A stretch of DNA of 64,000 nucleotides, from the NCBI GenBank assembly GCA_964577675.1, contig CAZNZQ010000001.1, forward strand, positions 5,875 to 69,874. The letters run 5' to 3'. The number at the start of each line of letters is the position of its first letter. Position 1 is the stretch's first letter. The stretch is from an uncultured Candidatus Saccharibacteria bacterium. GTDB taxonomy: Bacteria > Patescibacteriota > Minisyncoccia > Phycocordibacterales > UBA5272. Position numbers and translations under genes: made by a program. Positions 6,280 to 28,769 of this stretch are shown here, one piece after another. The notes beneath the pieces were generated by a model. That model searched no databases, was not told the DNA's origin, and saw only the letters and a list, made by a program, of their open reading frames with translations.

Positions 6280-6308
6280 ACCTGGAACCAGTTCGGCCGT
6301 GCTGATTA

Positions 6309-13274: not shown

Positions 13275-16200
13275 TTAAAAATTAGCCGTAGCTACATATA
13301 CTAGACTGGTACTGTAATCTGCGGGCGGAGTTGTAGCAGCTACATTAAGAAGATATCTAAGCGAAAAAGTGGTCGTCGCACTGTCGCCAACCGTAGAAGA
13401 AGCCACTTGCACCGCAGTAGATGTAGAAGCACCGAATGCGTAGAGAGCCGATGCGTAAGGAGAATTAACGCCACCAGAACCACCTGATGCTGTAGCTCGT
13501 ATACCGAACTGTTCAGTCCCTGGATTGGAAGTCGAGCTTGTGCCACCTAATCCAGCTATGGTCGTTGTCCCTGCTGAAAGACTTCCACCCTGGAGGGTGA
13601 TAGAATACCCGTTTGTAGCGCTTGTTAAGACAGAGACGGTGTGCGCCACGACTTCTGTGTTACTTCCGCCTGTACTTGTACTCGACGCATATCTCGCCTG
13701 CGCAGGAGAGGCTACACCAAAGTAAACGCTTGATGTTGATATGCTAAACGTAATCGCCTGCGAAGATGACGCACTACTGCGCTCCTCCCACTCTACGAGC
13801 AACCTGTACCGGACCAGGGCATCGCCGCGAGCCTGTTCGTTATAGAGAGCAAAACCTTCTCCTTCTTTGAGAATAAGTTCGTCTCCATAATAGATGTCAC
13901 TTTCATAGTTACCAAAGGGTTGGTTGACCACGCCCGGCACAGTAATACCAAGAAGTCGTGATTCGGCAGCCTGCGCAAGCGTTACCGTGACACCTGTGGT
14001 ACGTATATCTGATGTGGTCGTTGCCGTGCCTGAATGTTTTCTAGGGATACTCGTAGAAGCGACAGAAGTCCCAGCTGAGACTGCGCTTATTTTTCTAACG
14101 GCCGCTGAACCGTAGACTGGCGCAACCGCTGTACCACTACGATTAACCCTGATGCCTAACTTCTTCACCAAAAAGTTTTTACCTGAACCAGACGGGTTAA
14201 AGAATGACGTATAGACATACCCATTTGCAGTAGACTGATTGACTGGACCAGATGTGTACAGATACTCTCCTTGAGAAGATGGAGTTACAGATTCCTCGTC
14301 CCATTCAATAAGAACTTTTACCCTAAAATCAGCATCCCCAGCTGCAGTATCATGATAAAAACCAACACCTTCACCTGCTTGTAAAATTAAAGGTTCCTTA
14401 TTGCTAAATTCTATTTCTTTATACCCAGTATTGCCAGCTGCAGCACTGGCTACTGCCCCTGGTGTCTGTATCGCGAGAAGCTTAGAATCGGTTGTCCCGG
14501 AATATGTAGCCGTAACACCAGTTCGACGTATTTCTACAATACTATTTGCAGTTCCAGAATGTTTTTTAGGTATGTTTGCTGCAGTAATTTGTGTCCCTGC
14601 TGACGCAGCAGAGATACGCCGTAGCTGCATTGGAATATAGACCGCCGCTGCAGCAGTGTCTACTCTTATACTTACCCTCCTAATAATTGCAGTCTTACCA
14701 GAGCCAGCTGGGTTAAAAAATGTCGCATAGTTATATGAGGTCGCAGCACTTCCGTTAATAGGTCCTATATCTATAAGGTACTCTCCTTGGGATGTGGGCG
14801 CAGAAGCTTCTTCATCCCACTCGATCTGAATCTTTACATAATTATCAACATCCCCTGTTGCTAAGTTATAGAGCCCTATTCCTTCCCCTGGTTGTAGTAC
14901 TATCTTCTCATTCTCACCAAGAACAATTTCTCTCTCTCCTATGGTCTGCCCTACAGCACCTGGGGAGTTAACGGTTAGAAAGTTAGAGTCTGTTGTTCCG
15001 AAGTAAGTAGCAGTAATGGCAGAAGCACACGCAAGTCCACACCACCTCATTTCCATTACACTATTTGCTGTCCCGGTATGCTTCTTCGGTAGAGCACCAG
15101 CTGCTACGAGTGTACCCCCCGACGCTACGGTCATCCTCCTAAAAGCGTACCCAACATACACTGCGGTAGTATCTGCATTTATCTTCACCAAGAGCCTCTT
15201 AACAACCGCGGTCTTACCTGAACCAACTGGATTAAAGAACGAGTAGTGGGTTGTGTTAGCTGCGGGTGACGCTTCTACGCGTGATGACGCCCATATATAC
15301 TCGCCCTGCGACGAAGGCGTATTACTTGTATCAACTTCTTGCCACTCTATAATCATACGAACAATTTGATCGATGTCACCAGCCGTCTCTGAAATAAGGG
15401 CTATTCCTTCACCGGCCTGTAATATAAGTTTTTCATCACTCTCATGAAAGTCCATTTGTTGCCAGCCTATTGCCTGTCCTGTTGTGCCACATGGAGTAAC
15501 ATTACCGATACGCGCATCAATACCACCGGCAGTCGTAGTAGAGACAGTAACCCCTGTGCGCCTAAACTCCATTTTAGTATCAGTACCGCTTGTGTTTTTC
15601 TTTGGAATACTAGACGTAGCGATAGACGTCCCACCGGTTGCTGATGATGTTCTCTGCAAAATAATGTTATTGGTATAGATGGCGGCTGCGTCACATGTCT
15701 CTGTCCCGAACCAAACACGCTTCACAACTGCTGTCTTACCGGACGCAGATGGGTTAAAAAAGGAATTGTAAGTGTACCCTGCGGTTGCCGCCACTTCAAC
15801 ACGAGGAAAAGCAAAGAGAAACTCGTTTTGCGGAGAAGGAGCATTCACTGTTTCCTCCCACTCTATAAGTACACGGACGCGAGCTGTAACTGTGCCAGCA
15901 GCTTCTTGATAAACTGCGACACCTTCCCCTGGCTGAACCACAATTCGCTCATCACTTTCCCCAAACGTAATATCACGCCCTGGGTAATACGCTCCAACAG
16001 CACCAGAAAGAGGTCGCCCTAAAATTCTGGAATCTGTTGTTCCTGAAAGAGACACTGTAGGGCCAGCTGTTCGAACCTCGATAACAGAATCAGTTGAACT
16101 AGAGTTTTTATCTACATAATCTGTCGCTATAATTTGCGTACCAGCTGAGGATGTAGAAATCCTGCGCAAGCTTAAGTTAACATAGTTTGAAGCAGTAGAG

Positions 16201-16553
16201 GAGGCGGTGTTTGCTCGTATGGCCACTCTCTTAATAGAAGCAGTACGCCCAGAAGCAGATGGGTTAAAAAAAGCTACATATACATAGTTCGCCCCAGTGG
16301 AACCGTTCACAGGCCCGATATCTAACATATATTCTCTTTCTCCTGGGTTTAGTGCAGCCTGTGCCTTGGGCACTGAAAAGTAATTATCAACAACATTTTT
16401 GTTAAGCGAAGCTAAGTAGAGTTTGTCCACTATTTGAGAATTTTTATGCTCTTTTACTATATATTGAGAAGCGTAAAAAAGAGCCACTGGATCAAAACCA
16501 GAGAAGAACAGGTATACAATAAGAAAGAGTGAGAATATTTTCTTAATCAGCAT
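13275..16553 (-). CDS. giant secreted paralog: 5 tandem ~165-aa repeats plus the shared WxL-like C-terminal module
   Basis: 1092 aa. It has five internal repeats, each containing FFNP[SA][GA]SGKTA[VI][VI]KRV and ES/NDE[KR][LI][IV]LQ[AP]GEG[IV][AG] and ending in IEW[EQD]E. The last ~195 aa are homologous to the two smaller paralogs (...SLVYVATANF). Confidence 0.55.
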   Translation of the reverse strand: MLIKKIFSLFLIVYLFFSGFDPVALFYASQYIVKEHKNSQIVDKLYLASLNKNVVDNYFSVPKAQAALNPGEREYMLDIGPVNGSTGANYVYVAFFNPSASGRTASIKRVAIRANTASSTASNYVNLSLRRISTSSAGTQIIATDYVDKNSSSTDSVIEVRTAGPTVSLSGTTDSRILGRPLSGAVGAYYPGRDITFGESDERIVVQPGEGVAVYQEAAGTVTARVRVLIEWEETVNAPSPQNEFLFAFPRVEVAATAGYTYNSFFNPSASGKTAVVKRVWFGTETCDAAAIYTNNIILQRTSSATGGTSIATSSIPKKNTSGTDTKMEFRRTGVTVSTTTAGGIDARIGNVTPCGTTGQAIGWQQMDFHESDEKLILQAGEGIALISETAGDIDQIVRMIIEWQEVDTSNTPSSQGEYIWASSRVEASPAANTTHYSFFNPVGSGKTAVVKRLLVKINADTTAVYVGYAFRRMTVASGGTLVAAGALPKKHTGTANSVMEMRWCGLACASAITATYFGTTDSNFLTVNSPGAVGQTIGEREIVLGENEKIVLQPGEGIGLYNLATGDVDNYVKIQIEWDEEASAPTSQGEYLIDIGPINGSAATSYNYATFFNPAGSGKTAIIRRVSIRVDTAAAAVYIPMQLRRISAASAGTQITAANIPKKHSGTANSIVEIRRTGVTATYSGTTDSKLLAIQTPGAVASAAAGNTGYKEIEFSNKEPLILQAGEGVGFYHDTAAGDADFRVKVLIEWDEESVTPSSQGEYLYTSGPVNQSTANGYVYTSFFNPSGSGKNFLVKKLGIRVNRSGTAVAPVYGSAAVRKISAVSAGTSVASTSIPRKHSGTATTTSDIRTTGVTVTLAQAAESRLLGITVPGVVNQPFGNYESDIYYGDELILKEGEGFALYNEQARGDALVRYRLLVEWEERSSASSSQAITFSISTSSVYFGVASPAQARYASSTSTGGSNTEVVAHTVSVLTSATNGYSITLQGGSLSAGTTTIAGLGGTSSTSNPGTEQFGIRATASGGSGGVNSPYASALYAFGASTSTAVQVASSTVGDSATTTFSLRYLLNVAATTPPADYSTSLVYVATANF

Positions 16554-17532
16554 AACTTATATAAGAATAGACATCTTCGCTAATTTCTTTGAAAATCTCC
16601 TTAATTGCAAATTGATTAAGTTCTCCTGGCTTATTTTGTGCTATCATCACAGTTAGTATGTACGGCCTCCCCGGCACATAAACAATCCCAGAGTCCGCCA
16701 TGACCTTCTCGTCTATCCTGATACCAGTCTTGTGTACGAAAGCTATGTCACTAGGTAACCCAAGAGAAAGATATTCTTTTGGCGCTCGACTCAAGATATC
16801 CAAAAATAACTTAGAGTTCTCGTGTGTAAAGTATGTTGAGTTATAAAGAGATCTAAAAAAGATAGAGTAACGCTTCGCGGTGATTCTGTTGTCTACATCT
16901 GAGTCTTTTTTATTATCGCGTTTAAGTGTATCTATAACGTCGTCCATTCCAAGGTGAACAAACACCTCTTCGAGCTCTTCCCCTTCTAAGTTGCGAAGAA
17001 GGATGAAGTGGGCGGTGTTGTCAGAGTTAATTAACGACTCTTCCAAAAGTCGCTTAATCGACATAGATGTACCTGTTGGAAGTTTATACATTTCACCAAA
17101 CTCACTATCTTTATCTTGATCCAAGATGACGAGCTCGTTATGTAACTTCCACTTCCCTTCCTCCACCTTTTTTAGTGCTGCCATGGCAACAGGTATCTTG
17201 ATGAGACTGGCTGGCCATATCTTCTCATCTTTATTAACAGCAATGTTAGCCCCTGTAGGTAAATACTCAAAATAAATTGATATCGTATAATCCCCTTTCC
17301 CTTCATACCCCTGCAGCTTCTCTCTCAATTCTTGAAAATCAACTATTAGATTCCTTTTGTCTAGGACAGCAAGCGACGGGTTAAGGTAACTAGAAACATC
17401 ATTTGCAGTAAAGCGGGCGTCGCCTCTAGTTAACAGGAGAATAAAAACTGTGCAAAGCAGTACTCCAATAATTACAACATATGCTTTGTTGGTATAAAAA
17501 TTGTGTAGAGCTTTTGTAATTATTTTTTTCAT
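16543..17532 (-). CDS. class A beta-lactamase-fold serine hydrolase (beta-lactamase/transpeptidase-like) with N-terminal TM
   Basis: 329 aa. All three class-A motifs are present in the right order and spacing: S-x-x-K (ASLIK), SDN (INSDNTA) and KTG (HKTGI). Confidence 0.55.
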   Translation of the reverse strand: MKKIITKALHNFYTNKAYVVIIGVLLCTVFILLLTRGDARFTANDVSSYLNPSLAVLDKRNLIVDFQELREKLQGYEGKGDYTISIYFEYLPTGANIAVNKDEKIWPASLIKIPVAMAALKKVEEGKWKLHNELVILDQDKDSEFGEMYKLPTGTSMSIKRLLEESLINSDNTAHFILLRNLEGEELEEVFVHLGMDDVIDTLKRDNKKDSDVDNRITAKRYSIFFRSLYNSTYFTHENSKLFLDILSRAPKEYLSLGLPSDIAFVHKTGIRIDEKVMADSGIVYVPGRPYILTVMIAQNKPGELNQFAIKEIFKEISEDVYSYISYAD

Positions 17533-17537
17533 ATATA

Positions 17538-20057
17538 TTATTCTTCGGTTGTAGTTGCGGTAACCGGCAAGTTGAGGCTGCTGATAGTATCTTTATCTAG
17601 AATACTATCTAGTTCAAACTTTCGCCTAAGAGCTTCTGATAGGCTGCCGTCATCGTCAGAGAATACCTCTCCTGTTTGTTCACTATAAAATGCAAAGTCC
17701 TGCGCTCCAACTATAACTTCCCATCGAACACCGTCAAAGACAACACGGCCTCTTTCTCCAATTGATGTGTCATGTGCCGGAACCTCTCTCACTTGAATAG
17801 ATTTGTCGGTCAAATTAAAAGCATACACTCTTGACCTATCTTCAGAGAGCCAAAATAAGTGCGTATCCTTAATTCCAATCTGCATATTTTTATCTATTGT
17901 AATAGATGTTGAGGATCCAGCTTCTATCTTATACTCCCCTCCATTCTGGAGATCATACAACCACAACTCTTCCTTGCCATCTTTCTCCACCTGAACAATG
18001 ACAGCATTAAGGAGTGCGCCTCTAATTCTTTTAATCAAGTCTTTTGCAAAATCAGGCAAGCGATCCTCTTTCGTTTCTTCTGTCTTATCTTCCTTCTCTT
18101 CTTTTTTTATTTCTTGGACGATTTCGCGAGGAGAAAGTAAGGACCATGATTCTTTCTTCTCCAGCTTAAACCACTTATTCTTCGGTGTAACTGGAATGAT
18201 CACTGTGCTGCTTGTTGCAGTAGAAGTAGCTGTGATATCTGTACTCGCGGCAACTGAGCTTGTAGCTACTTCTGTCGTTGAAGTTGCGGTTACTAACGAG
18301 GATACCTCTTCTGTGGAGGTAGCCAAACTATTAGTTGTTGTCGCTACAGTTGTACTTGCGATATCTAAGGTACTGGTTGCTTGCGACACCTCTTCCTCAA
18401 GATACATATACCATATCTCTTCTTCATTGGTTTCGTTATTGATAATAGTTACTAGTCGCACACCATCAATCATCTCATCGTTAAGTATCGTATCTCTCGT
18501 AAAGTCTGGATGAGTATACTCTAGAGTAGAATCGTAAAGCACTTCTACCTTAACTGCATCGAGATATGTCACAGGCGTCTCACGTTCTAGGCTTTTAACA
18601 GTTACTTTTACTTGTAGCTGAGTCATATCTGCCCAGGTAGACGAGGCAGAAAGCGGGATTTCGAATGTTCTATATTTCATAGAGATCTCGTTGAGTTCAC
18701 CAAGAGAAGTCCAAGTAACTCCATCGAATGTGTACAGTATTTCTAAGAAGTTATTCTGTGACTCTTCTGGCGCTTGAGACAATAGCTCAGATGATGTTGA
18801 AACCATTTCTGTGGTTGATGCTAGACTTGAACTAGCTATAGAGAAGAGGTCGTCTGTGGAGGAAGCCGTTGTTGTGGCTGACAAAGAAACAATACTAGAG
18901 GTAGAGTTCTCCGGTGAAGCTTGTGACGAAGTGGATACAACCAAGGAGAGACCTTCGTCTGCCGTTTGAGTTACAGGCGTAGCTGTTTGTTCCTCTGTTC
19001 CTGGCTCGTCTATCTCTTGCGTCTCACTAGAGATTGAAGTAGTAAAAGATTCTTCGGGTGTAATGGCTACGAGCGGAGCCTCTTCCTCCATAGCCTGAAC
19101 AGGAGTGGCTACCTCCTCACTGCTCTCCTGCGCGAAAACAGTGGTAATAAAAAGTGAACCGATTCCCTGAAGAAGGTCCCGCATAAAAGATGTAGGGGCT
19201 TCAGGTGGTACTGAACTATCTCCTGCGGGCGTGACCTCTGCAGGGATTGACACTTCTTGGGATGCTGGCATGGTTTCTATCACAGGCGGTGGCACTACTA
19301 CCGTGTCTGTAACACTCTCAGACGGTGAGTTGTTAAAAATATTCCCCAGCGTTTCAGTTACCGCTCCTACAATAATCTCCGCGAATGATTGATTATCGTT
19401 TACTGATTGTGTGGTCGAAGCCTCAAGTGCCTCATTGGCAGTTTGAACAGGCGGAGATGAGGAGGCGGATGTTGAAGTTGACACAGTCTCTGTAGAGGAA
19501 GCTGAGAGTAATTCTTCAGAAGTTGAGGATGTTATCAGGGTTGTACTTGCGACAGCATTTATTACCTCAGTTGTTGTAGCTAGTTCACCAATAGTAATTT
19601 CTTCTTTATTAGTTATCGCAAGAGAAACAATTATCTTCTTAGGGACAGTTGCGTCATTAAATGTACCGTCGAAATTACCGCAATAGATATCAGCTGCTGT
19701 ATTCTTGTCTAGAATGGCTGAGTTCTTGTCGTTAAATTGTGAAGGGTCTGCATTAGATGTTGTCTCTCCTTCTTTCTCTGCATTACGAGGGTTGCTCCAA
19801 CCACCTAAACACGTCTCTGGATAAAAAGTTACAATATCAGCCTTACCACGTGGTGAGATAAAGCTGCCAACCACAAGAACAAGGACAAGCGAAGACAGTG
19901 CCATCATCATGTGCTTCTTCTGAAGAGCTCTATCGACTTGCTCTGAATACGAGAAGACCAAGTCATTCAGCGACTTGCTAACATTGTCGATATGAGACCC
20001 GACTTCGGGAAAATTCTTAGAAATGATTCTTGGTTTTCTTAGTTGGAATTTGCCCAT
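17538..20057 (-). CDS. single-pass membrane protein with very long S/T/A/E-rich low-complexity ectodomain
   Basis: 839 aa with an N-terminal TM (MMMALSSLVLVLVVGSF) and several hundred residues of S/T-rich low complexity. It has no recognisable catalytic motifs. Confidence 0.5.
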   Translation of the reverse strand: MGKFQLRKPRIISKNFPEVGSHIDNVSKSLNDLVFSYSEQVDRALQKKHMMMALSSLVLVLVVGSFISPRGKADIVTFYPETCLGGWSNPRNAEKEGETTSNADPSQFNDKNSAILDKNTAADIYCGNFDGTFNDATVPKKIIVSLAITNKEEITIGELATTTEVINAVASTTLITSSTSEELLSASSTETVSTSTSASSSPPVQTANEALEASTTQSVNDNQSFAEIIVGAVTETLGNIFNNSPSESVTDTVVVPPPVIETMPASQEVSIPAEVTPAGDSSVPPEAPTSFMRDLLQGIGSLFITTVFAQESSEEVATPVQAMEEEAPLVAITPEESFTTSISSETQEIDEPGTEEQTATPVTQTADEGLSLVVSTSSQASPENSTSSIVSLSATTTASSTDDLFSIASSSLASTTEMVSTSSELLSQAPEESQNNFLEILYTFDGVTWTSLGELNEISMKYRTFEIPLSASSTWADMTQLQVKVTVKSLERETPVTYLDAVKVEVLYDSTLEYTHPDFTRDTILNDEMIDGVRLVTIINNETNEEEIWYMYLEEEVSQATSTLDIASTTVATTTNSLATSTEEVSSLVTATSTTEVATSSVAASTDITATSTATSSTVIIPVTPKNKWFKLEKKESWSLLSPREIVQEIKKEEKEDKTEETKEDRLPDFAKDLIKRIRGALLNAVIVQVEKDGKEELWLYDLQNGGEYKIEAGSSTSITIDKNMQIGIKDTHLFWLSEDRSRVYAFNLTDKSIQVREVPAHDTSIGERGRVVFDGVRWEVIVGAQDFAFYSEQTGEVFSDDDGSLSEALRRKFELDSILDKDTISSLNLPVTATTTEE

Positions 20058-20130
20058 AGTACTTCTTTAGTATAGCAACGAAAAGTACTTAAAAATGAAG
20101 GGCAATCCACACAAAAGACTTTTACTACTT

Positions 20131-20232
20131 CTAAACTTCAAGAATCTCGCCAGACTGGTGTGCCCATAACTTAGCGTATAGCCCTTCCTGTTTGATGAGG
20201 TCTTCATGTGTACCATCTTGCACAATCTTTCC
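20131..20232 (-). pseudogene. 3'-terminal remnant of an ABC exporter ATP-binding protein gene
   Basis: The last ~33 codons of ORF 20131..20331 read GKIVQDGTHEDLIKQEGLYAKLWAHQ, the conserved C-terminus of MsbA-type ABC ATPases. The upstream part of the ORF has no ABC similarity and there are no Walker motifs anywhere nearby. Confidence 0.5.
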
Positions 20233-20262
20233 CTTGGTTTCCTTTCTCGAAAGATTTGACTT

Positions 20263-20292
20263 ATCGGCGCGCAATGCGCCGATTTTTATTTT
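20263..20292 (+). terminator. rho-independent terminator-like hairpin at the left edge of the island
   Basis: ATCGGCGC-gcaat-GCGCCGAT followed by TTTTTATTTT. Confidence 0.5.
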
Positions 20293-20528
20293 CAAAAACG
20301 GGGTCAGGCATCGTTTTAGAACCTGACTCAACTTGGCTGCGATGTAAGGTCTAGTACGTACTGTGTACGTGTGTGTAAGGGGATTTGGGCTAGTTCGAAT
20401 CTCAAACCCTAAGGGGTTTAGGTCGTTATTTACAGTTTATGAAATACCGTATTTGCTGTGATTTTACTGTGATTTCCGTTAATGAATCTGATATTAAAAA
20501 AGCCACAAGTTTTGTATACTTGTGGCAT

Positions 20529-20936
20529 ATGGCAAACCCAGGATCTCTTAAACCTTTCAAGAAAGGTCATGACCCAAGACGTAATGTTAAAGGGAGAATT
20601 TCTAAACCTCTATCTGAGTCTGGAGCTTTGAAAAAGTATCTTCTAAAGCACCTACATAAGAAAGTTACTGTTAATGGTGTACAAATGAGGATGATGGATC
20701 TCGTAGCGGAAAGACTCGTTGATGATGCTGTCAGAGGTAGTATTTCAGCATTAAAAATATTACTTGATAGAACAGAGGGTAAAGTAATGACACAAGCCCA
20801 GATGGCAAAAGTACGAGATAAAGAAGAACGAAAGTTGTCAGCAGCAGAAGACAAAGAGATGCTTCGAGTTATGAGACTTTTTGCAACCGAAGAAGAATTA
20901 AAGAAACTGGACGCTCAGGACTCGACCAAATCCTAA
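20529..20936 (+). CDS. phage-associated protein with DUF5681-like N-terminus
   Basis: MANPGSLKPFKKGHDPRRNVKGRISKP resembles the FKKGQSGNPxGRPKG motif of DUF5681 phage proteins. The start was chosen at the internal Met of ORF 20439..20936. Confidence 0.35.
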   Translation: MANPGSLKPFKKGHDPRRNVKGRISKPLSESGALKKYLLKHLHKKVTVNGVQMRMMDLVAERLVDDAVRGSISALKILLDRTEGKVMTQAQMAKVRDKEERKLSAAEDKEMLRVMRLFATEEELKKLDAQDSTKS

Positions 20937-21005
20937 GGTGTCTGTACTGTAGCTTACATAAAGGCATTTGTGTAGCCGAAGTTATCCACTCAAGTTACTC
21001 TAGGT

Positions 21006-21419
21006 CTATCTCGTTCCAAAGTGGGTATGTTGAACATAGTTGAACTCACCCTTATCTCCACCAACAATTCTTCCATCAATATTTTCCATATAGTACCCTA
21101 AAGTTTTATTTGTAAATAAATCTACAATACTTTTTTGAGTTATTCCCTGACCAACTGATATAGAGCGATACAAACAATCATTCGTATTTTTATCAAAAAT
21201 ATAGTCAGACGATGAGACAATGTCATTAGATGTATTTTGCTTGTTATATGTCTGATCTTCTTTTTCTCTTTTAGATCCTAATTCCAAGCACTGTTTCTGT
21301 AATGATATTTTGAGAGTCCGTTCATTTTGTTCAGGAATATATTTGAGAAGATAATATACAACTGAGACAGCGATAACCAAACATGACAAAGCAACTATAT
21401 GTTGAGTATTTTTATTCAT
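21006..21419 (-). CDS. hypothetical membrane-anchored protein (island)
   Basis: 137 aa with an N-terminal TM helix (IVALSCLVIAVSVVYYLL) and no recognisable domain. Confidence 0.35.
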   Translation of the reverse strand: MNKNTQHIVALSCLVIAVSVVYYLLKYIPEQNERTLKISLQKQCLELGSKREKEDQTYNKQNTSNDIVSSSDYIFDKNTNDCLYRSISVGQGITQKSIVDLFTNKTLGYYMENIDGRIVGGDKGEFNYVQHTHFGTR

Positions 21420-21422
21420 AAG

Positions 21423-21564
21423 TGTGTGATAGGCCTTATAAAGTGTGGTAGCAAAAATCCCACCACGTGGTGAGGTCTTGCGACCTCCATACCCGTTTCC
21501 AGGTACGGCCTATCACAGCAAAATCCACATGATGGGGTTTTTACTGTGATAGGACATTGTTCGC
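21423..21564. promoter_or_regulatory. palindrome-rich divergent control region (operator-like TGTGATAGG repeats)
   Basis: GTGTGATAGGCC at 21423, the inverse GGCCTATCACAG at 21509 and CTGTGATAGG at 21553; the last two form a 10-bp-stem inverted repeat around a 25-nt spacer. A perfect 12-bp palindrome CACCACGTGGTG sits at 21458, with GAGGTCttgcGACCTC next to it. Confidence 0.45.
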
Positions 21565-21710
21565 CATGCCGCTGATTACTCAAATGGTTTAGGCTACTTG
21601 TATTGATTTGTAAGAACATTATACCTCGTTTTTGAGGTCTTTGGTACTATAGCTTACTAATAAAATTTTGTGTAGAGAAATTATTTTATAATTAGTTTGT
21701 ATTTTTTACA

Positions 21711-21719
21711 TGCTATAAT
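21711..21719 (+). promoter_or_regulatory. extended -10 promoter (TGcTATAAT) giving a leaderless transcript
   Basis: TGCTATAAT ends 6 nt before the ATG at 21726, so the predicted TSS coincides with the start codon and there is no SD sequence. Confidence 0.4.
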
Positions 21720-21725
21720 CAAATT

Positions 21726-21905
21726 ATGTCAAAAACTATTCGCCAAAAAAGAGGAGACACTCTTGTCGGAACAATAGAGAAACAATACAATGTAGATCTT
21801 GGACATCGTTCTGATAAGAAATTAGCAACTGTTTTAAAAGAAACAGGTGCTCCTTCTTTGTCGAAACTACTTAAGATGGCAGACTCTTCGAAAAAGAAGA
21901 AATAA
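21726..21905 (+). CDS. small basic protein (59 aa), first gene of recombinase operon; candidate regulator/RDF
   Basis: MSKTIRQKRGDTLVGTIEKQYNVDLGHRSDKKLATVLKETGAPSLSKLLKMADSSKKKK. It is below the 60-aa cutoff of the ORF track. It ends 6 nt before the next ORF. Confidence 0.35.
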   Translation: MSKTIRQKRGDTLVGTIEKQYNVDLGHRSDKKLATVLKETGAPSLSKLLKMADSSKKKK

Positions 21906-21911
21906 GATGGT

Positions 21912-22436
21912 ATGAGCGAAGATAGTTTTGATTTTATTGATTATCAAAATTTGAGGAACAATATAATTGACTCTATTAATTATATTGCAACACTTTGGAT
22001 ACAAGCTGAAAGTATTGAAAAAGCACATCACCAAGAACTATACAGGACAATTATTTTTTATAACGCATCTATAGTAGAAGCATTATTACTGTTCTTTTGT
22101 ACTAAAAAGTCAATTTTAATTACTCAAGATAAATATACGGAGCCGTATAAATTACCTGACGGTTTTCAAAAAACAGGCGGAGAAACTTACATAGCTATAA
22201 AAAAGAAAGTTAAAAAAACATATGCCGAAATTTCATTTGCAGATCTACTTGGTGCTACTGAAGATTTCTTGGGGAAGGCTTTATTTAAAAAGATTACAGA
22301 TTTGAAAGATCTCCGTAATACTGTACATCTAGCAAAGAGTAGGACACTAATTAAGCAGGAAGTCGTTAAAGGTTCGAGTGATACTGTTTTTAAATTAGTA
22401 AAAAAAATTCAAAAAGAAGTTAGGGTTATCAACTAG
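21912..22436 (+). CDS. hypothetical protein (island)
   Basis: 174 aa, AT-rich codon usage, in an operon between the small ORF and the recombinase. No motif could be assigned; the RNTVH stretch is not a canonical HEPN Rx4-6H. Confidence 0.4.
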   Translation: MSEDSFDFIDYQNLRNNIIDSINYIATLWIQAESIEKAHHQELYRTIIFYNASIVEALLLFFCTKKSILITQDKYTEPYKLPDGFQKTGGETYIAIKKKVKKTYAEISFADLLGATEDFLGKALFKKITDLKDLRNTVHLAKSRTLIKQEVVKGSSDTVFKLVKKIQKEVRVIN

Positions 22437-22461
22437 CTATATTGCGTGTTTCGGGTATGTT

Positions 22462-23751
22462 GTGTGTTGTATGGAAAACATAACAGAACCAATAAGATAT
22501 TGCCTCTACGCCCGTAAGTCAAGCGAAGCTGAGGAAAGACAAGCACTTTCAATAGATTCTCAGATAAAAGAGATGCTTTCACTGGCAAGTAGAGACGGGC
22601 TTGAAATTGTAGATATTTACCGAGAATCCCACTCAGCAAAGGATTGTGGACAAAGACCGGTCTATAACCAGCTTTTAACCGATATACGAGCCGGTAAGTT
22701 CAATGGAGTAGTTGTTTGGCATCCAGACAGACTTGCACGTAATGCAGGCGACCTTGGGGTAATTGTAGACCTTTTAGACCAAAAGAAGCTGGTGGAGATA
22801 CGAACACATAGTCAGAGATTTACCAATAATCCAAATGAGAAGTTCTTGCTGATGATTCTAGGGTCACAAGCAAAGCTAGAGAATGATAATAAGAGTATCA
22901 ATGTGAAGCGTGGACTTAAGATGAGGTGTGAGATGGGGTTTTGGCCAAGCGGAGCACCCACTGGATACATCAACTCACCGAATCGAGATGAGAAGGGTGT
23001 GGTCTATATAGATCCTGCGCGCGCGCATGTAATGAAAGATATGTTTGTGAAAGTTGGTCATGGAGGGTGGAGTGGAAGGAAGCTCTATAAATGGCTAAAA
23101 GATATAAAGTTCACCACCAGGTATGGCAAACCTCTTAGCTTAAGTAATATTTATAAAATACTTTCCAATCACTTCTACTATGGAATGTTTGAATACCCAA
23201 AAGGTAGCGGTAAGTGGTATCAAGGTAACTACGAGCCAATCATTTCCAAAGATTTATTTACTGATGTTCAGAACCAGCTACATCAAGAAGTAAGAGTGAA
23301 AGGAAAGAATAAAGAGTTTACATTCACAAAGATGTTTACTTGTGGAGCATGTGGCTCGGGTGTCACTGCGCAAGAGAAGTATAAAAACCTAAAAGACGGA
23401 ACGATTAATAAGTACATCTATTATGGATGTACACGAGCAAAAGATATAAACTGCAAGGAGGGTTATATAGAGGAAAGAGTACTATTAAGTGAGTTGCTGA
23501 AAGTGTTAGATCAAATAGACTTAGATAAATCAGGACTAAAGAAAAAGCTTGAAAAGGAAATTGAGAGGCATAAAGTTTTTCACTCTAAAATCATGGGTAA
23601 AGAAGAAGAAAACTATGAAGTAAAAGACGTAGACATACGCAATTATGCTAAGTATGTCCTAGAGAAAGGATCGGTGTTTGAGAAGAGAGATTTGTTGGGA
23701 ACTTTTAAGAGTGGAGTGAGTCTAAAAGATAAATATATTACGTTAACCTAA
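22462..23751 (+). CDS. large serine recombinase (resolvase/integrase family)
   Basis: The N-terminal resolvase catalytic region contains YARKSS (the Ser nucleophile) and VVWHPDRLAR. A recombinase domain and a C-terminal Cys-rich zinc ribbon (CGACGSG...YYGCTRAKDINC) plus a coiled coil follow. Confidence 0.8.
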   Translation: MCCMENITEPIRYCLYARKSSEAEERQALSIDSQIKEMLSLASRDGLEIVDIYRESHSAKDCGQRPVYNQLLTDIRAGKFNGVVVWHPDRLARNAGDLGVIVDLLDQKKLVEIRTHSQRFTNNPNEKFLLMILGSQAKLENDNKSINVKRGLKMRCEMGFWPSGAPTGYINSPNRDEKGVVYIDPARAHVMKDMFVKVGHGGWSGRKLYKWLKDIKFTTRYGKPLSLSNIYKILSNHFYYGMFEYPKGSGKWYQGNYEPIISKDLFTDVQNQLHQEVRVKGKNKEFTFTKMFTCGACGSGVTAQEKYKNLKDGTINKYIYYGCTRAKDINCKEGYIEERVLLSELLKVLDQIDLDKSGLKKKLEKEIERHKVFHSKIMGKEEENYEVKDVDIRNYAKYVLEKGSVFEKRDLLGTFKSGVSLKDKYITLT

Positions 23752-23757
23752 TTTATT

Positions 23758-24492
23758 TTAAACTATTTCTACCCACGAAGAGTCATAGCCAATGGTTTCT
23801 AGCAATGTGTCAGTATTAAGGGATGGCGGTTTCTTTATGAAAAACTTTAATCGATTTTCAGGGATATTTTCTTTTATTGTAAATTGAGAACCATGTCTTT
23901 GCCAGGTAAACTTATGTTCTTGAGTTTCCTTATCGAAACCTTCTAGGTTTCCATTTTTATTCTTTTTCCAAAAAAATCTATCTTCTGGATACCTAACTGT
24001 TTCGTACTCAAATACACTAAATGGGATTTTCTCATCTTCAAAATCCGTTGGCTTAAGAAGCACAACGGTTCTTATCTCTTTAAATTTATCCCTAAGTCCT
24101 TCTACTCTTCCATTCCAAATTTGAAGGACCTGGGCTCCAATACCATCATCTGTATCAGCAATTGTATCAAAAGAATACTCAGGATTATTTCTACCAGATA
24201 TAAGTCGTACTGAGGTCACAGTATGAGGGCTGCCTGCTTTTACAGTTTTTGCCCCCCAAGCGAAACTCCCTTTAATTACATCATCTAATCCAACATTAGA
24301 AGGTTTCCATTCCGCGTCTATTGCTTTTGCAAAAATTCTTTCCCACTCTGAACCTTCCAGTGCAGGATGTCTACTGGTGGCAAGCATGAAAACTAATTCC
24401 ATACCAAGAATACTCGTAAATGATTTTGGGAAATCATTTAATTGGTATGGTGGCACAGCCTTTTGCACTGTTTTTAGTTTTGGTTCTGACAT
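23758..24492 (-). CDS. putative type II restriction endonuclease (partner of the m5C methyltransferase)
   Basis: 244 aa, sitting 7 nt downstream of and co-directional with the MTase. It has no similarity I can name. The assignment is by genomic context only. Confidence 0.35.
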   Translation of the reverse strand: MSEPKLKTVQKAVPPYQLNDFPKSFTSILGMELVFMLATSRHPALEGSEWERIFAKAIDAEWKPSNVGLDDVIKGSFAWGAKTVKAGSPHTVTSVRLISGRNNPEYSFDTIADTDDGIGAQVLQIWNGRVEGLRDKFKEIRTVVLLKPTDFEDEKIPFSVFEYETVRYPEDRFFWKKNKNGNLEGFDKETQEHKFTWQRHGSQFTIKENIPENRLKFFIKKPPSLNTDTLLETIGYDSSWVEIV

Positions 24493-24498
24493 AATATC

Positions 24499-25491
24499 TT
24501 ATTTTACTCCAATTTTAGATTTTACGCTTCTTTTTTGCGCGGGAATGGGCTTTTTTGACAATGCTTCTATTATTGCACTTGCCACGGCTTCCATTTGAGG
24601 AACTACCACTGCGTTTCCGGCTTGTTTTCGTGCTTGTGAATCAGGCACTATTATTCTGTAATCATCCGGGAACCCTTGTAGTCTAAACATCTCTCTCGGA
24701 GTAAGTCTTCTTTCTCCATTCACAACAAGATAATTATAAGATCCGCTTGCTCTCAGTGCGCAAGAGTAGGACTTCATACTAATGTTACCTGACATATTCT
24801 CATGCCACACAGAAGGATAGGCAGGGGCTGTCTTATTCTGTTCCTTCAGTTTTCTTTGTAACTTTAATTTAAAATAATTACTTAAGAAATGCTTAGAATC
24901 TATTTCTTTATTATCTTCTAAAATGTCTTCAAGCTTCTTAGCTCTTCTCTTTCCTTTGGTGGGAAATTCGAAAGGATGATTATCTCTGAAACCTACTATC
25001 ATTATTCGCTCTCTTTTCTGAGGCACACCAAAATCTAAACCGTTCAAAACCTTGTAGTGAACAAAATAACCTAACTTTTCAAGACTTGAAATTATTGTAT
25101 TAAAGGTTCTACCATGATCATGGGTTGTAAGGTTCTTAACATTCTCAAGGAACACTACTTTAGGTTTTTTATCTTTTATGATTCTTTCCACTTCAAAAAA
25201 CAAAGTTCCCCGTGTATCTGCAAAACCTTTCCTGTTTCCTGCAATACTAAAAGCTTGGCAAGGGAACCCTCCAGTTAAAATGTCATGGTCGGGGATTTCT
25301 TTTGTGGTTATTTTGGTTATATCTCCGTGAGGTTTATCACCAAAGTAGTTTTCATACATTATTTGAGCTGATTCGTCCCATTCAGAACCAAATACGCAAG
25401 TTGCCCCAGCTTTTTCAAAGCCGATTCTAATTCCGCCAATTCCAGCAAATAAATCTATAAAAGTTAATTTCTTCTCTGTATTTTTTTTCAT
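24499..25491 (-). CDS. DNA (cytosine-5)-methyltransferase, M.HhaI-like
   Basis: Motif I FIDLFAGIGG, motif IV GGFPCQAFSIAG, motif VI VVFLENVKN and motif VIII QKRERI. The N-terminal ~190 aa align closely by eye with my recollection of M.HhaI. The start was taken at MKKNTEKK. Confidence 0.85.
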   Translation of the reverse strand: MKKNTEKKLTFIDLFAGIGGIRIGFEKAGATCVFGSEWDESAQIMYENYFGDKPHGDITKITTKEIPDHDILTGGFPCQAFSIAGNRKGFADTRGTLFFEVERIIKDKKPKVVFLENVKNLTTHDHGRTFNTIISSLEKLGYFVHYKVLNGLDFGVPQKRERIMIVGFRDNHPFEFPTKGKRRAKKLEDILEDNKEIDSKHFLSNYFKLKLQRKLKEQNKTAPAYPSVWHENMSGNISMKSYSCALRASGSYNYLVVNGERRLTPREMFRLQGFPDDYRIIVPDSQARKQAGNAVVVPQMEAVASAIIEALSKKPIPAQKRSVKSKIGVK

Positions 25492-25585
25492 TACTCTAAT
25501 AAGTATACACCAAAACGGGTGCCTAAATTTTAGGCTCTCCACAGGTGGAGATTTTGAACAAATTAGAATAGTATTGTTTCAAAAG

Positions 25586-26878
25586 CTATTGAGTCTCCGT
25601 CTTATCTTCTAGCGATTTTAACTCAGAAAACTTAGCTGCCATTGTAGGGTTACCTTTAACAAGCTTCTTAACAGTTAACTCTTCTGCTTTGTCATTAGCT
25701 AGACGCAAGTTGTTCTCTGAAGAGATAAGATCTTTTTTTGTTTTTTCGAGCTGTTTGATGGATTCATCAATGTGATCTATGGCAGTTTTAAACTTTTCAG
25801 ATGCGAGGCGATAATTGCGATTAAAACCATCTCGGAATTCAGTCAAATCATTTTCAAAATTAGTAACATCAATGTTTTGATTTTTAACAATTGCAAGCTC
25901 AGCTTTATACTCAAGTGATTTGAGGGAAGCGTTACGAAGCAAAGTTATTATTGGAATAAAGAATTGTGGGCGAATAACATACATCTTTGAATGACGATAA
26001 GACACGTCAACTATACCTCCATTGTAAAGATCACTCTCCGGCTCAAGTAGTGAAACTAAAACTGCATACTCACATTTCTTTTCATCTCGATCTTTATCAA
26101 GTTCTTTAAGAAAATCCTCATTCTTTTTCTTTGTGGCAGTTTCGTCTCCTTCGTTTTTCATTTCAAACATAATAGAAATGATCTCATTGCCATTCTGATC
26201 AGTTTCTCGATATATATAATCTCCTTTACTGCCAGTTTTAGAATCATTATCTTTTTCAAAATATGCATTTTGAAAAGCTGTAGCACGAAGCTTGTTGAAT
26301 TCGTTTTCACAGTGTTGCTCTAGTGTCTCACCAATCATTTTTGTTGAGAGTTTAAGCTTCATATCTTTACGAAGAGCAATCTCCTCATCTTTCATTTTTA
26401 TGATGTCGTCTTTGGTTTTTAGTTCGCTAGAAAACTTCTCTTTTAGAGATGTCTCGAGTAACTGTTTTTCAACATCTTTACTCTTAAGTTCACCAGCAAG
26501 CTCGTCACGTTCTTTCTCGATTTTATTTACAGCTTCATTAATAGCCAGTTTCTTCTCGGTTTCAGTGGATGCAATTTTTGCTTTTAGTTCAGATATCTCA
26601 AGTTCGCTCTTTGATTGATGTAGAGCTACTTCACGCTCCTTTTCTGCTTTAAGCTTTGCTATTTCTGTATCTTTTTGAGAAAGATCATCTTTTATCTTAT
26701 TTTTAATCTGTTCTTCGGCAAGCTTCACAGCATTCTCTTTATCAGCCTTAAAAAGCCTTTCTCTCTGGAGCAGCTCTTCTTCAAACTGATGATCTCTTAC
26801 TTGCTTGAGAATGTCAGCAAAACCAGCTTCATCAATTTTAAAAGCTTTATGACAGTTAGGGCAGATAATCTCGTTCAT
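25586..26878 (-). CDS. DUF2130-like protein: N-terminal C4 zinc ribbon, long coiled coil, C-terminal RmuC/PD-(D/E)xK-like region
   Basis: CPNCHKAF...; roughly 200 aa of heptad-rich E/K sequence; then GDYIY...[13 protein letters not shown] (a candidate D...ExK nuclease motif). Confidence 0.45.
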
Positions 26879-26951
26879 TGTTATATTCTAACATTTATCA
26901 AGATGTAATCTAAATCACTAAGTAAAATCAAAATATATAGATAGTAATTGT

Positions 26952-27266
26952 TTACGTCCTTTGATATTTTAGTCGTCCATATAAAGCTTCACTGTAATAG
27001 TTAGCAAAATAAAACCATTGACCGACAAAAGCTCCGCAATCAGAACATGTATTGGCTAAATAGGTTTCATTTGCTGTTTTGCTAGTTACTTTTTTAATGA
27101 GAACTCCGTTTTTCTCAGCAAGCTCTATTTCTTTTTGGTTAAATTTCTCAGGCCCATAATCCATATTTCCGTTGTCGTCCCCAATAAGAGCAATGAGCAT
27201 TTCTTTACCACACTGCCAACAAGGTGCTGATATGATCATCATTTTTTCTTGTTGTTTATTATTCAT
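26952..27266 (-). CDS. small zinc-finger protein (two CxxC pairs)
   Basis: 104 aa containing CWQCGKEM...CSDCGAF. Confidence 0.4.
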   Translation of the reverse strand: MNNKQQEKMMIISAPCWQCGKEMLIALIGDDNGNMDYGPEKFNQKEIELAEKNGVLIKKVTSKTANETYLANTCSDCGAFVGQWFYFANYYSEALYGRLKYQRT

Positions 27267-27299
27267 GCAATAATATTACACTAAACAAACTACATGCAC

Positions 27300-27643
27300 C
27301 ATGTCATTTAGATCTACTAAGTATTGACCCGTTTAGGTCCTTCGATACTTATTTACAAAGCTGGGGCGTTGAGACTGTCACTGTGTATAGGTCTAGTACG
27401 AGTCCTAACAGGGTGATGGGTTTTGGTCTAGAAAATTCTAAAACCACCTATTGAAAAATATAGGTCTTTAGGTCCTTCGATACTTATTGCTTCTGCTGGG
27501 GCGTTGAGAATGTCACCGGCTTTAGGTCTGGTACTAAGTGACCCCATTGAGACTAGCTTTTTTATTTTTGTGTCAATAGTTGATCTTAAAAAACTATTGA
27601 AAAATATACGAAGTGTTTAGGTCCTTCGATACTTATTGATTCT
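27300..27643. repeat. three tandem degenerate ~140-bp repeats containing the tRNA-Gln 3' flank sequence
   Basis: TTTAGGTCCTTCGATACTTATT..CTGCTGGGG recurs at 27332, 27467 and 27615. Copies 2 and 3 also share CTATTGAAAAATATA upstream. The third copy runs directly into the real tRNA-Gln 3' end. Confidence 0.7.
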
Positions 27644-27714
27644 GCTGGGGTATAAGGACTCGAACCTCAATTAACGGTGCCAGAAACCGTTGTCCTACCA
27701 TTAGACGATACCCC
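27644..27714 (-). tRNA. tRNA-Gln (anticodon CUG)
   Basis: Reverse complement TGGGGTATCGTCTAATGGTAGGACAACGGTTTCTGGCACCGTTAATTGAGGTTCGAGTCCTTATACCCCAG folds as a cloverleaf. It has a U1-A72 acceptor, anticodon stem ACGGT/ACCGT, loop TTCTGGC and a TTCGAGT T-loop, and closely resembles E. coli tRNA-Gln. CCA is not encoded. Confidence 0.75.
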
Positions 27715-27756
27715 AATTAATATTTTGTGGCTCACTACCTCGTTCCTGCCCTTAAT

Positions 27757-27952
27757 CTCTTATTGATACTTGAGATTATTTTGCTCGAAATCTTGCTAGA
27801 TTTACGAGCCCTCGAAGCCGAGCTTCTCGGCCCAATTGTTATTCCTACTTCTCAAACTTTTATTTGCCTCGACTCGGTTATTGATTCTCGAGATTACTTT
27901 GTTCAAAACTTTGCTAAGCTTTGAACCCTTCGAGGCCGAGCCTCGGCGGCCC
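27757..27952 (+). repeat. two tandem ~100-bp imperfect repeats each ending in a GC-rich palindrome
   Basis: Unit 1 (27757-27845) and unit 2 (27860-27952) are about 75% identical. Each carries GCCGAGCTTCTCGGC or GCCGAGCCTCGGC followed by a T-rich tract. Confidence 0.55.
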
Positions 27953-28238
27953 ATTTTATATTTCTCACTATCTTCCGCTCTTCGGGCCGTTGCGACTATG
28001 CTTCCGGCACTGCGATTTCAAAAGATTGATTACTATCTAAGAAATCGGGAGCCCATTTCCTGCTGACAACATTTTGTCGCTGAACAGCTGTGCAAATTTC
28101 TAAATTTTTGAACTTTGCCACAGAAACGTATCCGAAATTCTACCACAATGTTGGACTTTTTTCTAGGCTGACCTGATGAGGCACTCGATAAGTGAGTCTA
28201 GCTTAAAAAGCAATTATGTAGTATTATGCAGTACTCAA

Positions 28239-28769
28239 ATGCGATGGGTAATTTTTACAGGGACATGGCGTCTCACAAATAAAGAAGTAGAGAACGACGT
28301 ACGAAAGCGGGCTCGTTCTGTTTTCGAGATGGGTGACGGACTTGTAACAGGTGGGGCTACTGGTGTCGACTACTTCGCAATGGATGAATGGCTAAAACTC
28401 GACCCAGAATGCAAGCGTTTGCGTATCTTTATTCCTGCGCGACTTACTCACTTTATTGAAGACTACCGCAAAAACTGGAAACATTCGCCGATAACTGATG
28501 CAGATATTGATAACCTAGAATATATCCTAAAGATAATCCACGAGAGAAACCCTGCCTGCATGTTTGAAGTACGAAAAGAGTCAGGCGATATTACCCAAGG
28601 TGAGTATGACTTACGTCACAATGAAGAAGTAACGTTCTCTGACGAGGTATACGCATTTCAGGTTAACAACAGTACTGGAACTGGAGATACTATTACGAAA
28701 GCTACGGCAGCTGGCCTCCCTATTACTGTTCACGAGAAATATATAATTGAAGAGTCTAAGAAAAATTAG
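28239..28769 (+). CDS. SLOG-superfamily (DprA/LOG/YpsA-like) Rossmann-fold protein
   Basis: VIFTGTWR...LVTGGATGVDYFAMDEW matches the strand-loop GGxxGxD nucleotide-binding signature of SLOG domains. The start was taken at MRWV. Confidence 0.35.
   Translation: MRWVIFTGTWRLTNKEVENDVRKRARSVFEMGDGLVTGGATGVDYFAMDEWLKLDPECKRLRIFIPARLTHFIEDYRKNWKHSPITDADIDNLEYILKIIHERNPACMFEVRKESGDITQGEYDLRHNEEVTFSDEVYAFQVNNSTGTGDTITKATAAGLPITVHEKYIIEESKKN

Follow-up and report, generated by a model that had tools for sequence, protein, structure and literature searches.

The DNA considered here is a 64-kb stretch of a contig from an uncultured Candidatus Saccharibacteria bacterium (CAZNZQ010000001.1; the whole stretch is called the window below). 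It carries a tRNA-Gln(CTG) gene whose 3' end adjoins a variable segment of about 7.5 kb. From left to right, the segment contains a C-terminal scrap of an ABC exporter gene, a DUF5681 gene, a LOOT RNA, a large serine recombinase (LSR) gene, a candidate type II restriction-modification (R-M) pair, a DUF2130 gene and three related repeat units that abut the tRNA (Table 1). The original prediction had listed DUF5681, LSR, C5 methyltransferase plus putative endonuclease and DUF2130 genes in a low-GC block at tRNA-Gln, and Pfam matches bear out the DUF5681, LSR, methyltransferase and DUF2130 genes. The segment, 20116-27642, is a real insertion, a tRNA-linked genomic island: it adjoins an intact tRNA 3' end, is absent from a close relative, deviates in composition and carries its own integrase.

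A variable segment with its own recombinase

Loci of relatives compared with the window are labelled L001-L099, and L001 is the closest relative found; it came from a search, in a set with a single genome for each species, that used the neighbouring 559-amino-acid (aa) helicase-like protein as query, and the two share 93% aa identity in this protein. In BLASTN synteny, window positions 31125-28767 and 27783-27643 match L001 as far as the end of its tRNA-Gln, and on the left side window 20115-17005 matches L001 from 6451 on. The genes flanking the island are 85-98% aa identical to those of L001 on both sides, in conserved order, and homology on the tRNA side breaks at 27643, one base beyond the tRNA 3' end called by ARAGORN. 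In place of window 20116-27642, L001 carries an unrelated 1.17 kb (5286-6450) that encodes proteins of 93 and 178 aa and repeats the tRNA 3' end in inverted orientation. The whole block is missing from L001, which has no intact ABC gene there either, in agreement with the insertion proposed in the original prediction. As a separate observation, a long near-perfect hairpin follows the tRNA-Gln of L001 (5285-5385) and then comes the inverted tRNA 3'-end copy (GTTGCTGGGAGTATAAGGACTCGAACC); this may be the scar of another event at the same hotspot.

The composition sets the same block apart. A profile of guanine-cytosine (GC) content gives 0.361 at 20116-27643 and 0.429 in the remainder of the window, upholding the predicted drop. 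The island value is the lowest among all 7.5-kb intervals and lies more than 5 standard deviations off the non-overlapping ones (0.428 +/- 0.0125, minimum 0.398). Its tetranucleotide distance to the remainder, 0.271, is the largest, with a maximum of 0.203 elsewhere. Gene by gene, GC is 0.30-0.39 for every island gene and 0.42-0.45 for the flanking genes.

By its domains, the recombinase is a member of the LSR class, with integration activity predicted. Pfam matches comprise PF00239 (E 1.4e-24, residues 15-159), PF07508 (E 7e-13) and PF13408 (E 2e-6), the latter two above their cut-offs, and YARKSS at residues 16-21 was read by eye, not from an alignment, as the catalytic-serine motif. Matches to the PHROG 95 integrase (3e-68) and, as the best solved structures in the PDB, to SPbeta YokA and the TP901-1 integrase place it among the serine integrases. 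The best NCBIfam match is CcrB (NF047343 equivalog, E 6.6e-41); at 140.6 bits against a cut-off of 900 bits, the protein is not a Ccr orthologue. At least 8000 homologs exist at E < 1e-30. Identity to the query is 71-89% among the best 120, whose named entries bear the labels Patescibacteria, Paceibacterota or Minisyncoccia. This three-domain LSR is the sole recombinase in the island, with no tyrosine integrase found by Pfam, PHROG or NCBIfam.

In locus L093, the recombinase is 89% aa identical (85% at the nucleotide level over the gene) and is surrounded by other genes on both sides; homology is confined to 22432-23697, and the turnover of cargo and neighbours reaches the very ends of the recombinase gene. 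The 174-aa gene just upstream of the recombinase in the window is not beside it in L093. This gene is not conserved with the recombinase, and the predicted recombinase operon is therefore unsupported. No directionality factor, with which an LSR would also catalyse excision, was identified; the 174-aa gene, the upstream neighbour, is not conserved alongside the recombinase.

Attachment-site-like repeats, recombinase relatives and the LOOT RNA

The three repeat units lie between 27314 and the tRNA, with periods of 135 and 149 nt. All of them contain the exact 22-mer AATAAGTATCGAAGGACCTAAA (at 27332, 27467 and 27616, on the minus strand), which in each case starts 6 nt past a copy of the tRNA end, CCCCAGC. 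Read in the tRNA direction, a unit consists of the tRNA 3' end or a look-alike, six variable bases and the 22-mer; the look-alike GTGACAKTCTCAACGCCCCAGC is common to units A and B, and unit C has the true T-arm and acceptor. Neither AATAAGTATCGAAGGACCTAAA nor GTGACAKTCTCAACGCCCCAGC occurs elsewhere in the window (none is expected by chance), and the 22-mer was not found in the viral contigs.

A relationship between the left junction at 20341-20440 and the tRNA-side repeats, noticed in the original prediction, is upheld by alignment. The junction is collinear with a segment that begins in the tail of unit A and ends in the head of unit B (GGTCTAGTAC, then a hairpin, then GTTTAGGTC), and it runs on into TTATTTACA, which is specific to unit A; the alignment scores 40, against a maximum of 36 among 500 shuffles and likewise among 2170 control segments of the window. 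The string AGGTCTAGTAC is found at 20347, 27389 and 27524 only. We read 20341-20440 as a degraded fourth repeat unit, so that direct repeats of the attachment core comprise three clean copies at the right end and a left copy that is degraded yet scores above all controls.

Relatives of the recombinase were examined at two distances: 51 on IMG/VR contigs at 45-60% aa identity, and further ones on contigs of metagenome-assembled genomes (MAGs) at 74-77%. In 20 of the 20 loci that have a tRNA downstream of the recombinase, the first such tRNA is on the opposite strand, at a gap of between ~120 nt and 5.4 kb; the genes in between are on the strand of the tRNA, and their Pfam domains are of defence type. 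Recombinase similarity clusters by tRNA type, with 75-83% identity in the Gln group and 68-83% in the Ser-TGA group. In each of the five independent nearest relatives (74-77% aa), cargo separates the recombinase from a downstream tRNA-Gln of the opposite strand or from the flank motif of one: tRNA-Gln(CTG) in L090 and L095/96, tRNA-Gln(TTG) in L097 and L098/99, and the flank motif at the contig end in L091/92. Their cargo is diverse, including a Shedu-like SduA_C protein (L090), CD-NTase and Cap15 of a cyclic-oligonucleotide-based anti-phage signalling system (CBASS; L091), a Dam-type methylase and partner (L095), and an Eco57I-like methylase with an HATPase_c_3 protein (L097).

The sequence beside the tRNA is shared as well. 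L095, L097 and L098 have an identical 34-nt tRNA-Gln 3' flank (AGTCTAGTTTAGTTCTGAACGACCAAGAGGGGTC), with a GAAsGACC core, despite their differing tRNAs. In L090, the tRNA is followed by 50 nt, an exact 38-nt tandem copy of the tRNA 3' end and then TCTGCAAAGAAGTATCGAAGGACCAGGAGGGGTC; this and the 22-mer of the window have AAGTATCGAAGGACC in common, at an equal distance from CAGC. L001, which lacks the recombinase, has none of the arm motif. Across tRNA types, 15 of the 18 flanks on the recombinase side have a GACC that starts at +18 to +24 from the tRNA end, compared with 1 of 14 control tRNAs taken from the fetched loci; as these 18 loci are related to one another, the corresponding binomial value of 1e-15 overstates their independence. 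Duplication of an attachment site or junction had been suggested from the window, and the composition of the units (tRNA 3' end plus arm) together with the recurrence of the arm core, in register, next to the tRNA-Gln of unrelated genomes with the nearest recombinase relatives supports the view that the repeats behave as attachment-site copies.

Copies of the tRNA 3' end at the far end of the element delimit two of the relatives: in L057, a 36/47 identity at the start of a 12.3-kb contig gives an element of 12.2 kb, and in L097, a stretch of 15 nt that matches exactly and lies 1.9 kb upstream from the recombinase gives one of 8.7 kb. Such copies were not detected in 13 other loci, many of them cut short. 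Most relatives among L030-L080 (IMG/VR viral contigs), L090 and L091 have a common backbone of a ParB_N-N6/N4 methylase, a small helix-turn-helix (HTH) protein (PF13022), one or two terminase-large-like genes, optional cargo and the recombinase; the optional cargo, often inserted, is a type I R-M system or a TnsA-like protein. Clustering and a few Pfam scans, not a dedicated search, covered flanks of as much as 10 kb on both sides at 54 family loci and revealed no capsid, portal or tail family. These features hint that the backbone relatives are satellite-like elements with their own terminase.

Several side observations concern the family. A second motif, ACCTGCTGAGMGCAGTATTC, lies ~55-155 nt past the tRNA 3' end in L038 (7365-7384), L090 (10612-10631), L097 (16685-16704) and L098 (14893-14912), and is absent from the window. 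The recombinases of L060 and L062 are 69% identical and have nearly the same arm (GAGTCAAGCGACCCGT) beside different tRNAs, Trp-CCA and Gln-TTG, whose 3' ends are identical at 19 of 22 positions; the pair could be a natural example of a shift in target choice. Some viral contigs, those of L044 and of the pairs L035/L047, L056/L063 and L061/L064, have two recombinase copies, which in L044 lie tail to tail within 1.3 kb.

A LOOT RNA, missed in the original prediction, is encoded to the left of the recombinase. The covariance match scores 83.5 bits against a gathering score of 46.4 and spans model positions 1-121, the full length; a 67-aa open reading frame (ORF) at 21416-21619 is spurious, the region being LOOT RNA. 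LOOT occurs 17 times in ~0.8 Mb of loci selected by recombinase and not once in 589 kb chosen otherwise; the bearers are the window, L030, L031, L033, L035, L038, L039, L041, L043, L045, L055, L057, L076, L090, L091, L092 and L097. Outside the Rfam model, 15 loci share GAGGTATAAT upstream, followed by TTACAAnTnAATA, with a conserved TATAAT promoter element, and an extra hairpin 3' of the model with the U-rich loop GGGCUUUUUG. In these 15 loci, a same-strand gene begins within a few tens of bases after LOOT (in the window, a 137-aa gene 53 nt after it), and the family of this gene varies: a tRNA_anti-like protein with an oligonucleotide/oligosaccharide-binding (OB) fold, a methylase, or unknowns. 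By this arrangement, LOOT resembles a small RNA proximal to its promoter, or else a 5' leader. A role as an RNA guide was considered and rejected at this level of comparison, the longest exact match to its own tRNA region being 7-8 nt, compared with 6-10 nt to the tRNAs of other loci. In the two descriptions consulted (PMC7779021; PMC7657543), LOOT is presented only as a metagenome-derived RNA, with no function given, and neither mentions a recombinase link, promoter, extra 3' hairpin or position ahead of a gene. A literature search, whose coverage left out the supplement of the LOOT-defining paper, retrieved no paper that ties LOOT to a recombinase.

Table 1. Features of the island and the adjoining tRNA, in window coordinates.
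Feature	Position	Strand	Details
Variable segment (island in the broad sense)	20116..27642	.	absent from L001; synteny breaks; GC and tetranucleotide outlier
ABC exporter ATPase, C-terminal scrap, ~35 codons	20131..20240	-	translation ends ...GKIVQDGTHEDLIKQEGLYAKLWAHQSGEILEV*
Left junction, read as a degraded fourth unit	20341..20440	.	GGTCTAGTACG, hairpin, GTTTAGGTCG-TTATTTACA
DUF5681 protein	20439..20936	+	Pfam PF18932, 31.7 bits, E 2.3e-7
137-aa protein, gene after LOOT	21006..21419	-	from ORF list; hydrophobic N-terminal stretch by eye; no family match
LOOT RNA (RF03000)	21446..21620	-	Rfam match 21472-21595; TATAAT 21620-21615; 3' hairpin ~21468-21446
174-aa protein	21912..22436	+	25 nt upstream of recombinase
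Large serine recombinase, 429 aa, apparently intact	22462..23751	+	PF00239, PF07508, PF13408; alternative ATG 22471 gives 426 aa
Type II restriction-endonuclease candidate, 244 aa	23758..24492	-	PD-(D/E)XK fold; adjoins C5 methylase, conserved linkage
C5 cytosine DNA methyltransferase	24499..25542	-	PF00145 E 1.2e-100; TIGR00675; PADLOC MTase_II 2e-124
DUF2130 protein, 430 aa	25586..26878	-	PF09903 E 3.9e-85; no PADLOC or PHROG match
104-aa protein	26952..27266	-	two CxxC pairs by eye; weak homolog at L057 291-473
Unit A, 50-nt attP-like site	27332..27381	-	pseudo-tRNA 3' end 27360-27381, spacer TTTGTA, arm 27332-27353
Unit B, 50-nt attP-like site	27467..27516	-	pseudo-tRNA 3' end 27495-27516, spacer AGAAGC, arm 27467-27488
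Unit C, attL-like junction	27616..27665	-	true tRNA-Gln 3' end, spacer AGAATC 27638-27643, arm 27616-27637
tRNA-Gln(CTG)	27644..27715	-	ARAGORN; Rfam tRNA 59.1 bits; by eye same sequence as in L001

Probable integration at the tRNA and competing explanations

The explanation that we hold with good confidence is that an integrative island entered the 3' end of tRNA-Gln(CTG) in a Saccharibacteria chromosome by means of its own LSR. It builds on what was observed above: presence and absence, composition, domain content, repeat anatomy, family geometry, arm motif and LOOT linkage. From these we infer the act of the recombinase in this insertion, the place where strands would cross, the origin of the extra units, any current mobility and any role of LOOT. 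As elsewhere in its very large, Patescibacteria-wide family, the LSR gene points toward the 3' end of a tRNA gene, with the cargo between them on the strand of the tRNA. The attachment site would comprise ~50 bp, in which the 3' end of the tRNA, with T-arm and acceptor, is followed at its terminus by ~6 variable bases and then by an arm borne by the element, which here is AATAAGTATCGAAGGACCTAAA and across the family has GACC ~21 nt from the tRNA end. Unit C would then be the tRNA-side junction, attL. Successive integration of related elements at the tRNA would produce a boundary whose core is flanked by an element arm to the left and to the right, which may be how the attP-like units A and B arose. 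The intervals between units are just ~70-90 nt, so any earlier elements are without interiors, and these would have been lost, leaving units A and B. The 6.9 kb from unit A to the left unit would represent the surviving element. The left junction would be a decayed further unit, and the 325 nt beyond it (hairpins and the ABC scrap) may be older debris or host DNA lost in L001. As cargo, the element would carry the portable type II C5 R-M pair, the DUF2130 protein and small proteins, with LOOT, under its own promoter, leading the leftward gene.

A number of observations weigh against this explanation. The left junction has a gap of 8-9 nt in the arm and no clear CCCCAGC, and with a left end this degraded, the left boundary of the island is approximate only. 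At well-studied LSRs, attB lies mostly inside protein-coding genes, and attB and attP have few central bases in common; the ~50-nt repeats found here contrast with such few-base sharing. Att sites of LSRs span about 40-50 bp and have imperfect dyad symmetry around a central dinucleotide. Composite sites of 50 nt are present here; dyad symmetry around the tRNA end, suggested by eye from TTCGA/TCGAA, gained no support from an ungapped test, which did no better than shuffles (0 of 18 loci). By our tally, no tRNA is in reach in ~15 family loci that each extend 3.8 kb or more downstream, and the ParB-methylase, HTH and terminase-like backbone of the viral-contig relatives is missing from the window. 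When metagenomes were scanned for a 20-mer from the repeat arm, the single match was inside an unrelated coding gene and is taken as chance; exact-protein look-ups of the recombinase (with both start codons) and of the pirin-like flank gene returned no record. Neither an excised circle nor an empty site from the same population came to light, and this very island was not found a second time. Finally, the differing neighbours of the L093 recombinase on both sides imply that the 7.5 kb may be a mosaic and not one unit.

That last point can be taken further. If the locus were a hotspot at which several independent events had deposited the R-M pair, DUF2130, the part with DUF5681 and LOOT, and the ABC scrap, the LSR would have moved a small part of the DNA or would be a mere resident. 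The R-M pair is indeed discrete, being 71% identical in nucleotide sequence to a pair in an unrelated context, the corresponding position in L001 is occupied by other genes and bears a tRNA-end scar, and the ABC scrap lies outside the left unit. Yet the order of LOOT, recombinase, minus-strand cargo and tRNA recurs in many genomes with different cargo, which fits one type of element with replaceable cargo, and GC is uniformly low over all genes. We regard such a mosaic as unlikely, and it overlaps with integration by the LSR instead of excluding it. Another possibility concerns the units themselves, which might be decayed tandem duplicates of the tRNA-Gln gene and its spacer in place of attachment-site copies, since the period of 135-149 nt is close to the tRNA length plus a spacer of ~70 nt and, judged by eye, TGGGGT...CCCCAGCA has been preserved in unit B with the potential for acceptor-stem-like pairing. 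Tandem duplication is very improbable given that the exact 22-mer lies outside the tRNA, that its core is in register beside tRNA-Gln only in genomes carrying the recombinase and not in L001, that a further unit lies 7 kb away at the left junction, that L057 and L097 have partial copies of the 3' end at their far ends, and that neither ARAGORN nor Rfam calls a pseudo-tRNA there.

The origin of the recombinase relatives on IMG/VR viral contigs, mostly with the ParB-methylase, HTH and terminase-large-like genes, raises the question of whether the island is the decayed remnant of a temperate phage that used a serine integrase; DUF5681 would fit, as L083 and L087 each have a viral homolog of it immediately before a terminase large subunit, at the small-terminase position. 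We give this little credence: no capsid, portal or tail family turned up around the 54 family loci in scans that were not aimed at them, the elements delimited by tRNA ends measure only 8.7 kb and 12.2 kb, with no structural genes among those scanned, and host-like genes adjoin the recombinase in MAG contexts. Within the island, too, Pfam and PHROGs matched no capsid, portal or tail family. An assembly chimera, in which a low-GC piece of another organism was misjoined at the tRNA, is barely conceivable. A GC drop and junction repeats mark places prone to misjoins, but both flanks are syntenic with L001, the junction has the tRNA-plus-arm structure typical of the family, and several independent assemblies have the same architecture.

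Integration by the LSR at the tRNA has its nearest working analogy in the staphylococcal cassette chromosome (SCC) elements, SCCmec and relatives, mobilised by CcrA, CcrB or CcrC. Like the island, these are LSR-driven non-phage islands at the 3' end of a conserved housekeeping gene; the sequence of the integration site is part of their direct repeats, several repeat copies form arrays interspersed with element remnants, and the cargo is variable and may include R-M genes. CcrB is also the best NCBIfam match of the recombinase. They differ in target (rlmH, compared with a tRNA here) and in having a ccrAB pair in place of one recombinase gene, and the island is further set apart by its Patescibacterium host, LOOT RNA, ~50-nt repeats and a recombinase below the CcrB cut-off. 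Classical tRNA islands and prophages of tyrosine integrases resemble the island in using the tRNA 3' end, keeping the tRNA intact, having boundaries marked by partial 3'-end copies, deviating in composition and varying in presence between close relatives, whereas the island has a serine recombinase only. Long shared cores, 25-76 bp at tRNA attB sites, are a hallmark of the tyrosine integrases (PMC8092301). Phage LSRs (SPbeta SprA/YokA, TP901-1, phiC31 and Bxb1) have the same three-domain layout; the sites at tRNA ends, the long shared arms, a length of 426-429 aa that is short for the class and the lack of virion genes in the elements looked at distinguish the present case. Satellites of the Staphylococcus aureus pathogenicity island (SaPI) and phage-inducible chromosomal island (PICI) type are likewise small integrated elements with an integrase and a gene in the small-terminase position (DUF5681 here), and the recombinase relatives resemble them in having an HTH protein and a terminase-large-like gene with no capsid gene among the genes scanned. 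Unlike in SaPI and PICI, no replication module, repressor or helper link was identified here, and mobilisation is pure conjecture. The island itself is ordinary, tRNA-linked with an integrase and R-M cargo; its engine, a tRNA-targeting serine integrase, is unusual.

A broader claim can be put forward only tentatively, with the chances somewhat against it as a whole. The LSR clade would be an undescribed, tRNA-gene-specific branch of LSRs and a major vehicle of defence genes across the Candidate Phyla Radiation. Its members would read the T-arm and acceptor end of the tRNA as one half-site and the conserved arm (GACC at ~+21) as the other; the many members with terminase-like genes and with no capsid genes seen here would suggest satellite-like spread; and LOOT would be a conserved promoter-proximal leader or regulator of the elements. 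A literature search found no account of this recombinase family or of serine-recombinase islands at tRNA genes in Patescibacteria, which is weak evidence of novelty. Bacteria of the Candidate Phyla Radiation have tiny genomes and few described mobile elements, and a single, highly conserved recombinase family located beside tRNAs and carrying genes of R-M, Shedu-like and CBASS type would give these organisms a main route for exchanging defence genes. Serine integrases with defined 50-bp sites are wanted as genome-engineering tools, and a clade whose target varies by tRNA would provide a natural series of specificities. The LOOT RNA gains a genomic home and a testable position, with its own promoter, an extra hairpin and then a gene.

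Cargo, the ABC scrap and neighbouring features

By gene content, the C5 methyltransferase and the 244-aa endonuclease candidate form a type II R-M system, with cleavage predicted. The candidate has more than 3000 homologs, nearly all without an informative name (mostly 'hypothetical protein') and none with a recorded Pfam domain. In L094, an 87%-identical copy of the 244-aa protein has a C5 methylase before it and a Vsr gene after it, in an unrelated context, and nucleotide identity with the window spans just the two R-M genes (71% over 25461-23768), as would befit a portable module. Profile scans yielded no functional explanation for the 174-aa, 104-aa and DUF2130 proteins, the first being without any match.

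The true start of the DUF5681 protein is probably a Met near 20526. The first ~29 codons of the ORF (20439-20530) contain an 11-nt tandem repeat, TTTACTGTGAT, present 2.2 times, and this 5' extension also includes a hairpin (20526-20502) followed by a T-run on the opposite strand. The idea that DUF5681 is a divergent copy of the small-terminase-like HTH protein of the family was ruled out by an hhalign probability of 0.3%.

The ABC scrap aligns to positions 690-718 of a 726-position PHROG ABC transporter profile (E 4.9e-6), covering only the last ~30 positions. Two hairpins lie upstream of it, at 20263-20283 and ~20305-20330, a terminator-like hairpin among them. The original prediction rightly saw a 3' remnant without a 5' part nearby: the 64 kb contain no other ABC piece, and neither a 5' part nor a resident ABC gene that could be its source is found in the window or in the fetched loci, and L002 has no ABC-sized ORF downstream of its tRNA-Gln. 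Its proposed role as a truncated gene that bounds the island does not survive the comparison with L001, as synteny places the scrap inside the variable segment. Located in window-specific DNA, the fragment is debris in a variable locus and not a host gene disrupted by the insertion.

Three further features flank the island. On the other side of tRNA-Gln, between the pirin-like gene and the region upstream of the tRNA, a 197-aa gene (28176-28769, plus strand) is absent from L001 and constitutes a second, separate indel. Its product has no family match in Pfam, NCBIfam or PADLOC; its TGGATGVDY motif recalls SLOG/DprA-like folds. Upstream of tRNA-Gln, 27745-27960 contains two loosely similar copies of ~119 nt (e.g., CGGCCCAATTGTTATTCCT and CGGCCCATTTTATATTTCT) and aligns with L001 only in part. 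To the left of the island, 13275-20057 on the minus strand encodes very large, repetitive, Ser/Thr-rich proteins of 1092 aa (with about five internal repeats) and 839 aa, which are conserved in L001 at 85-93% aa identity and are probably surface proteins.

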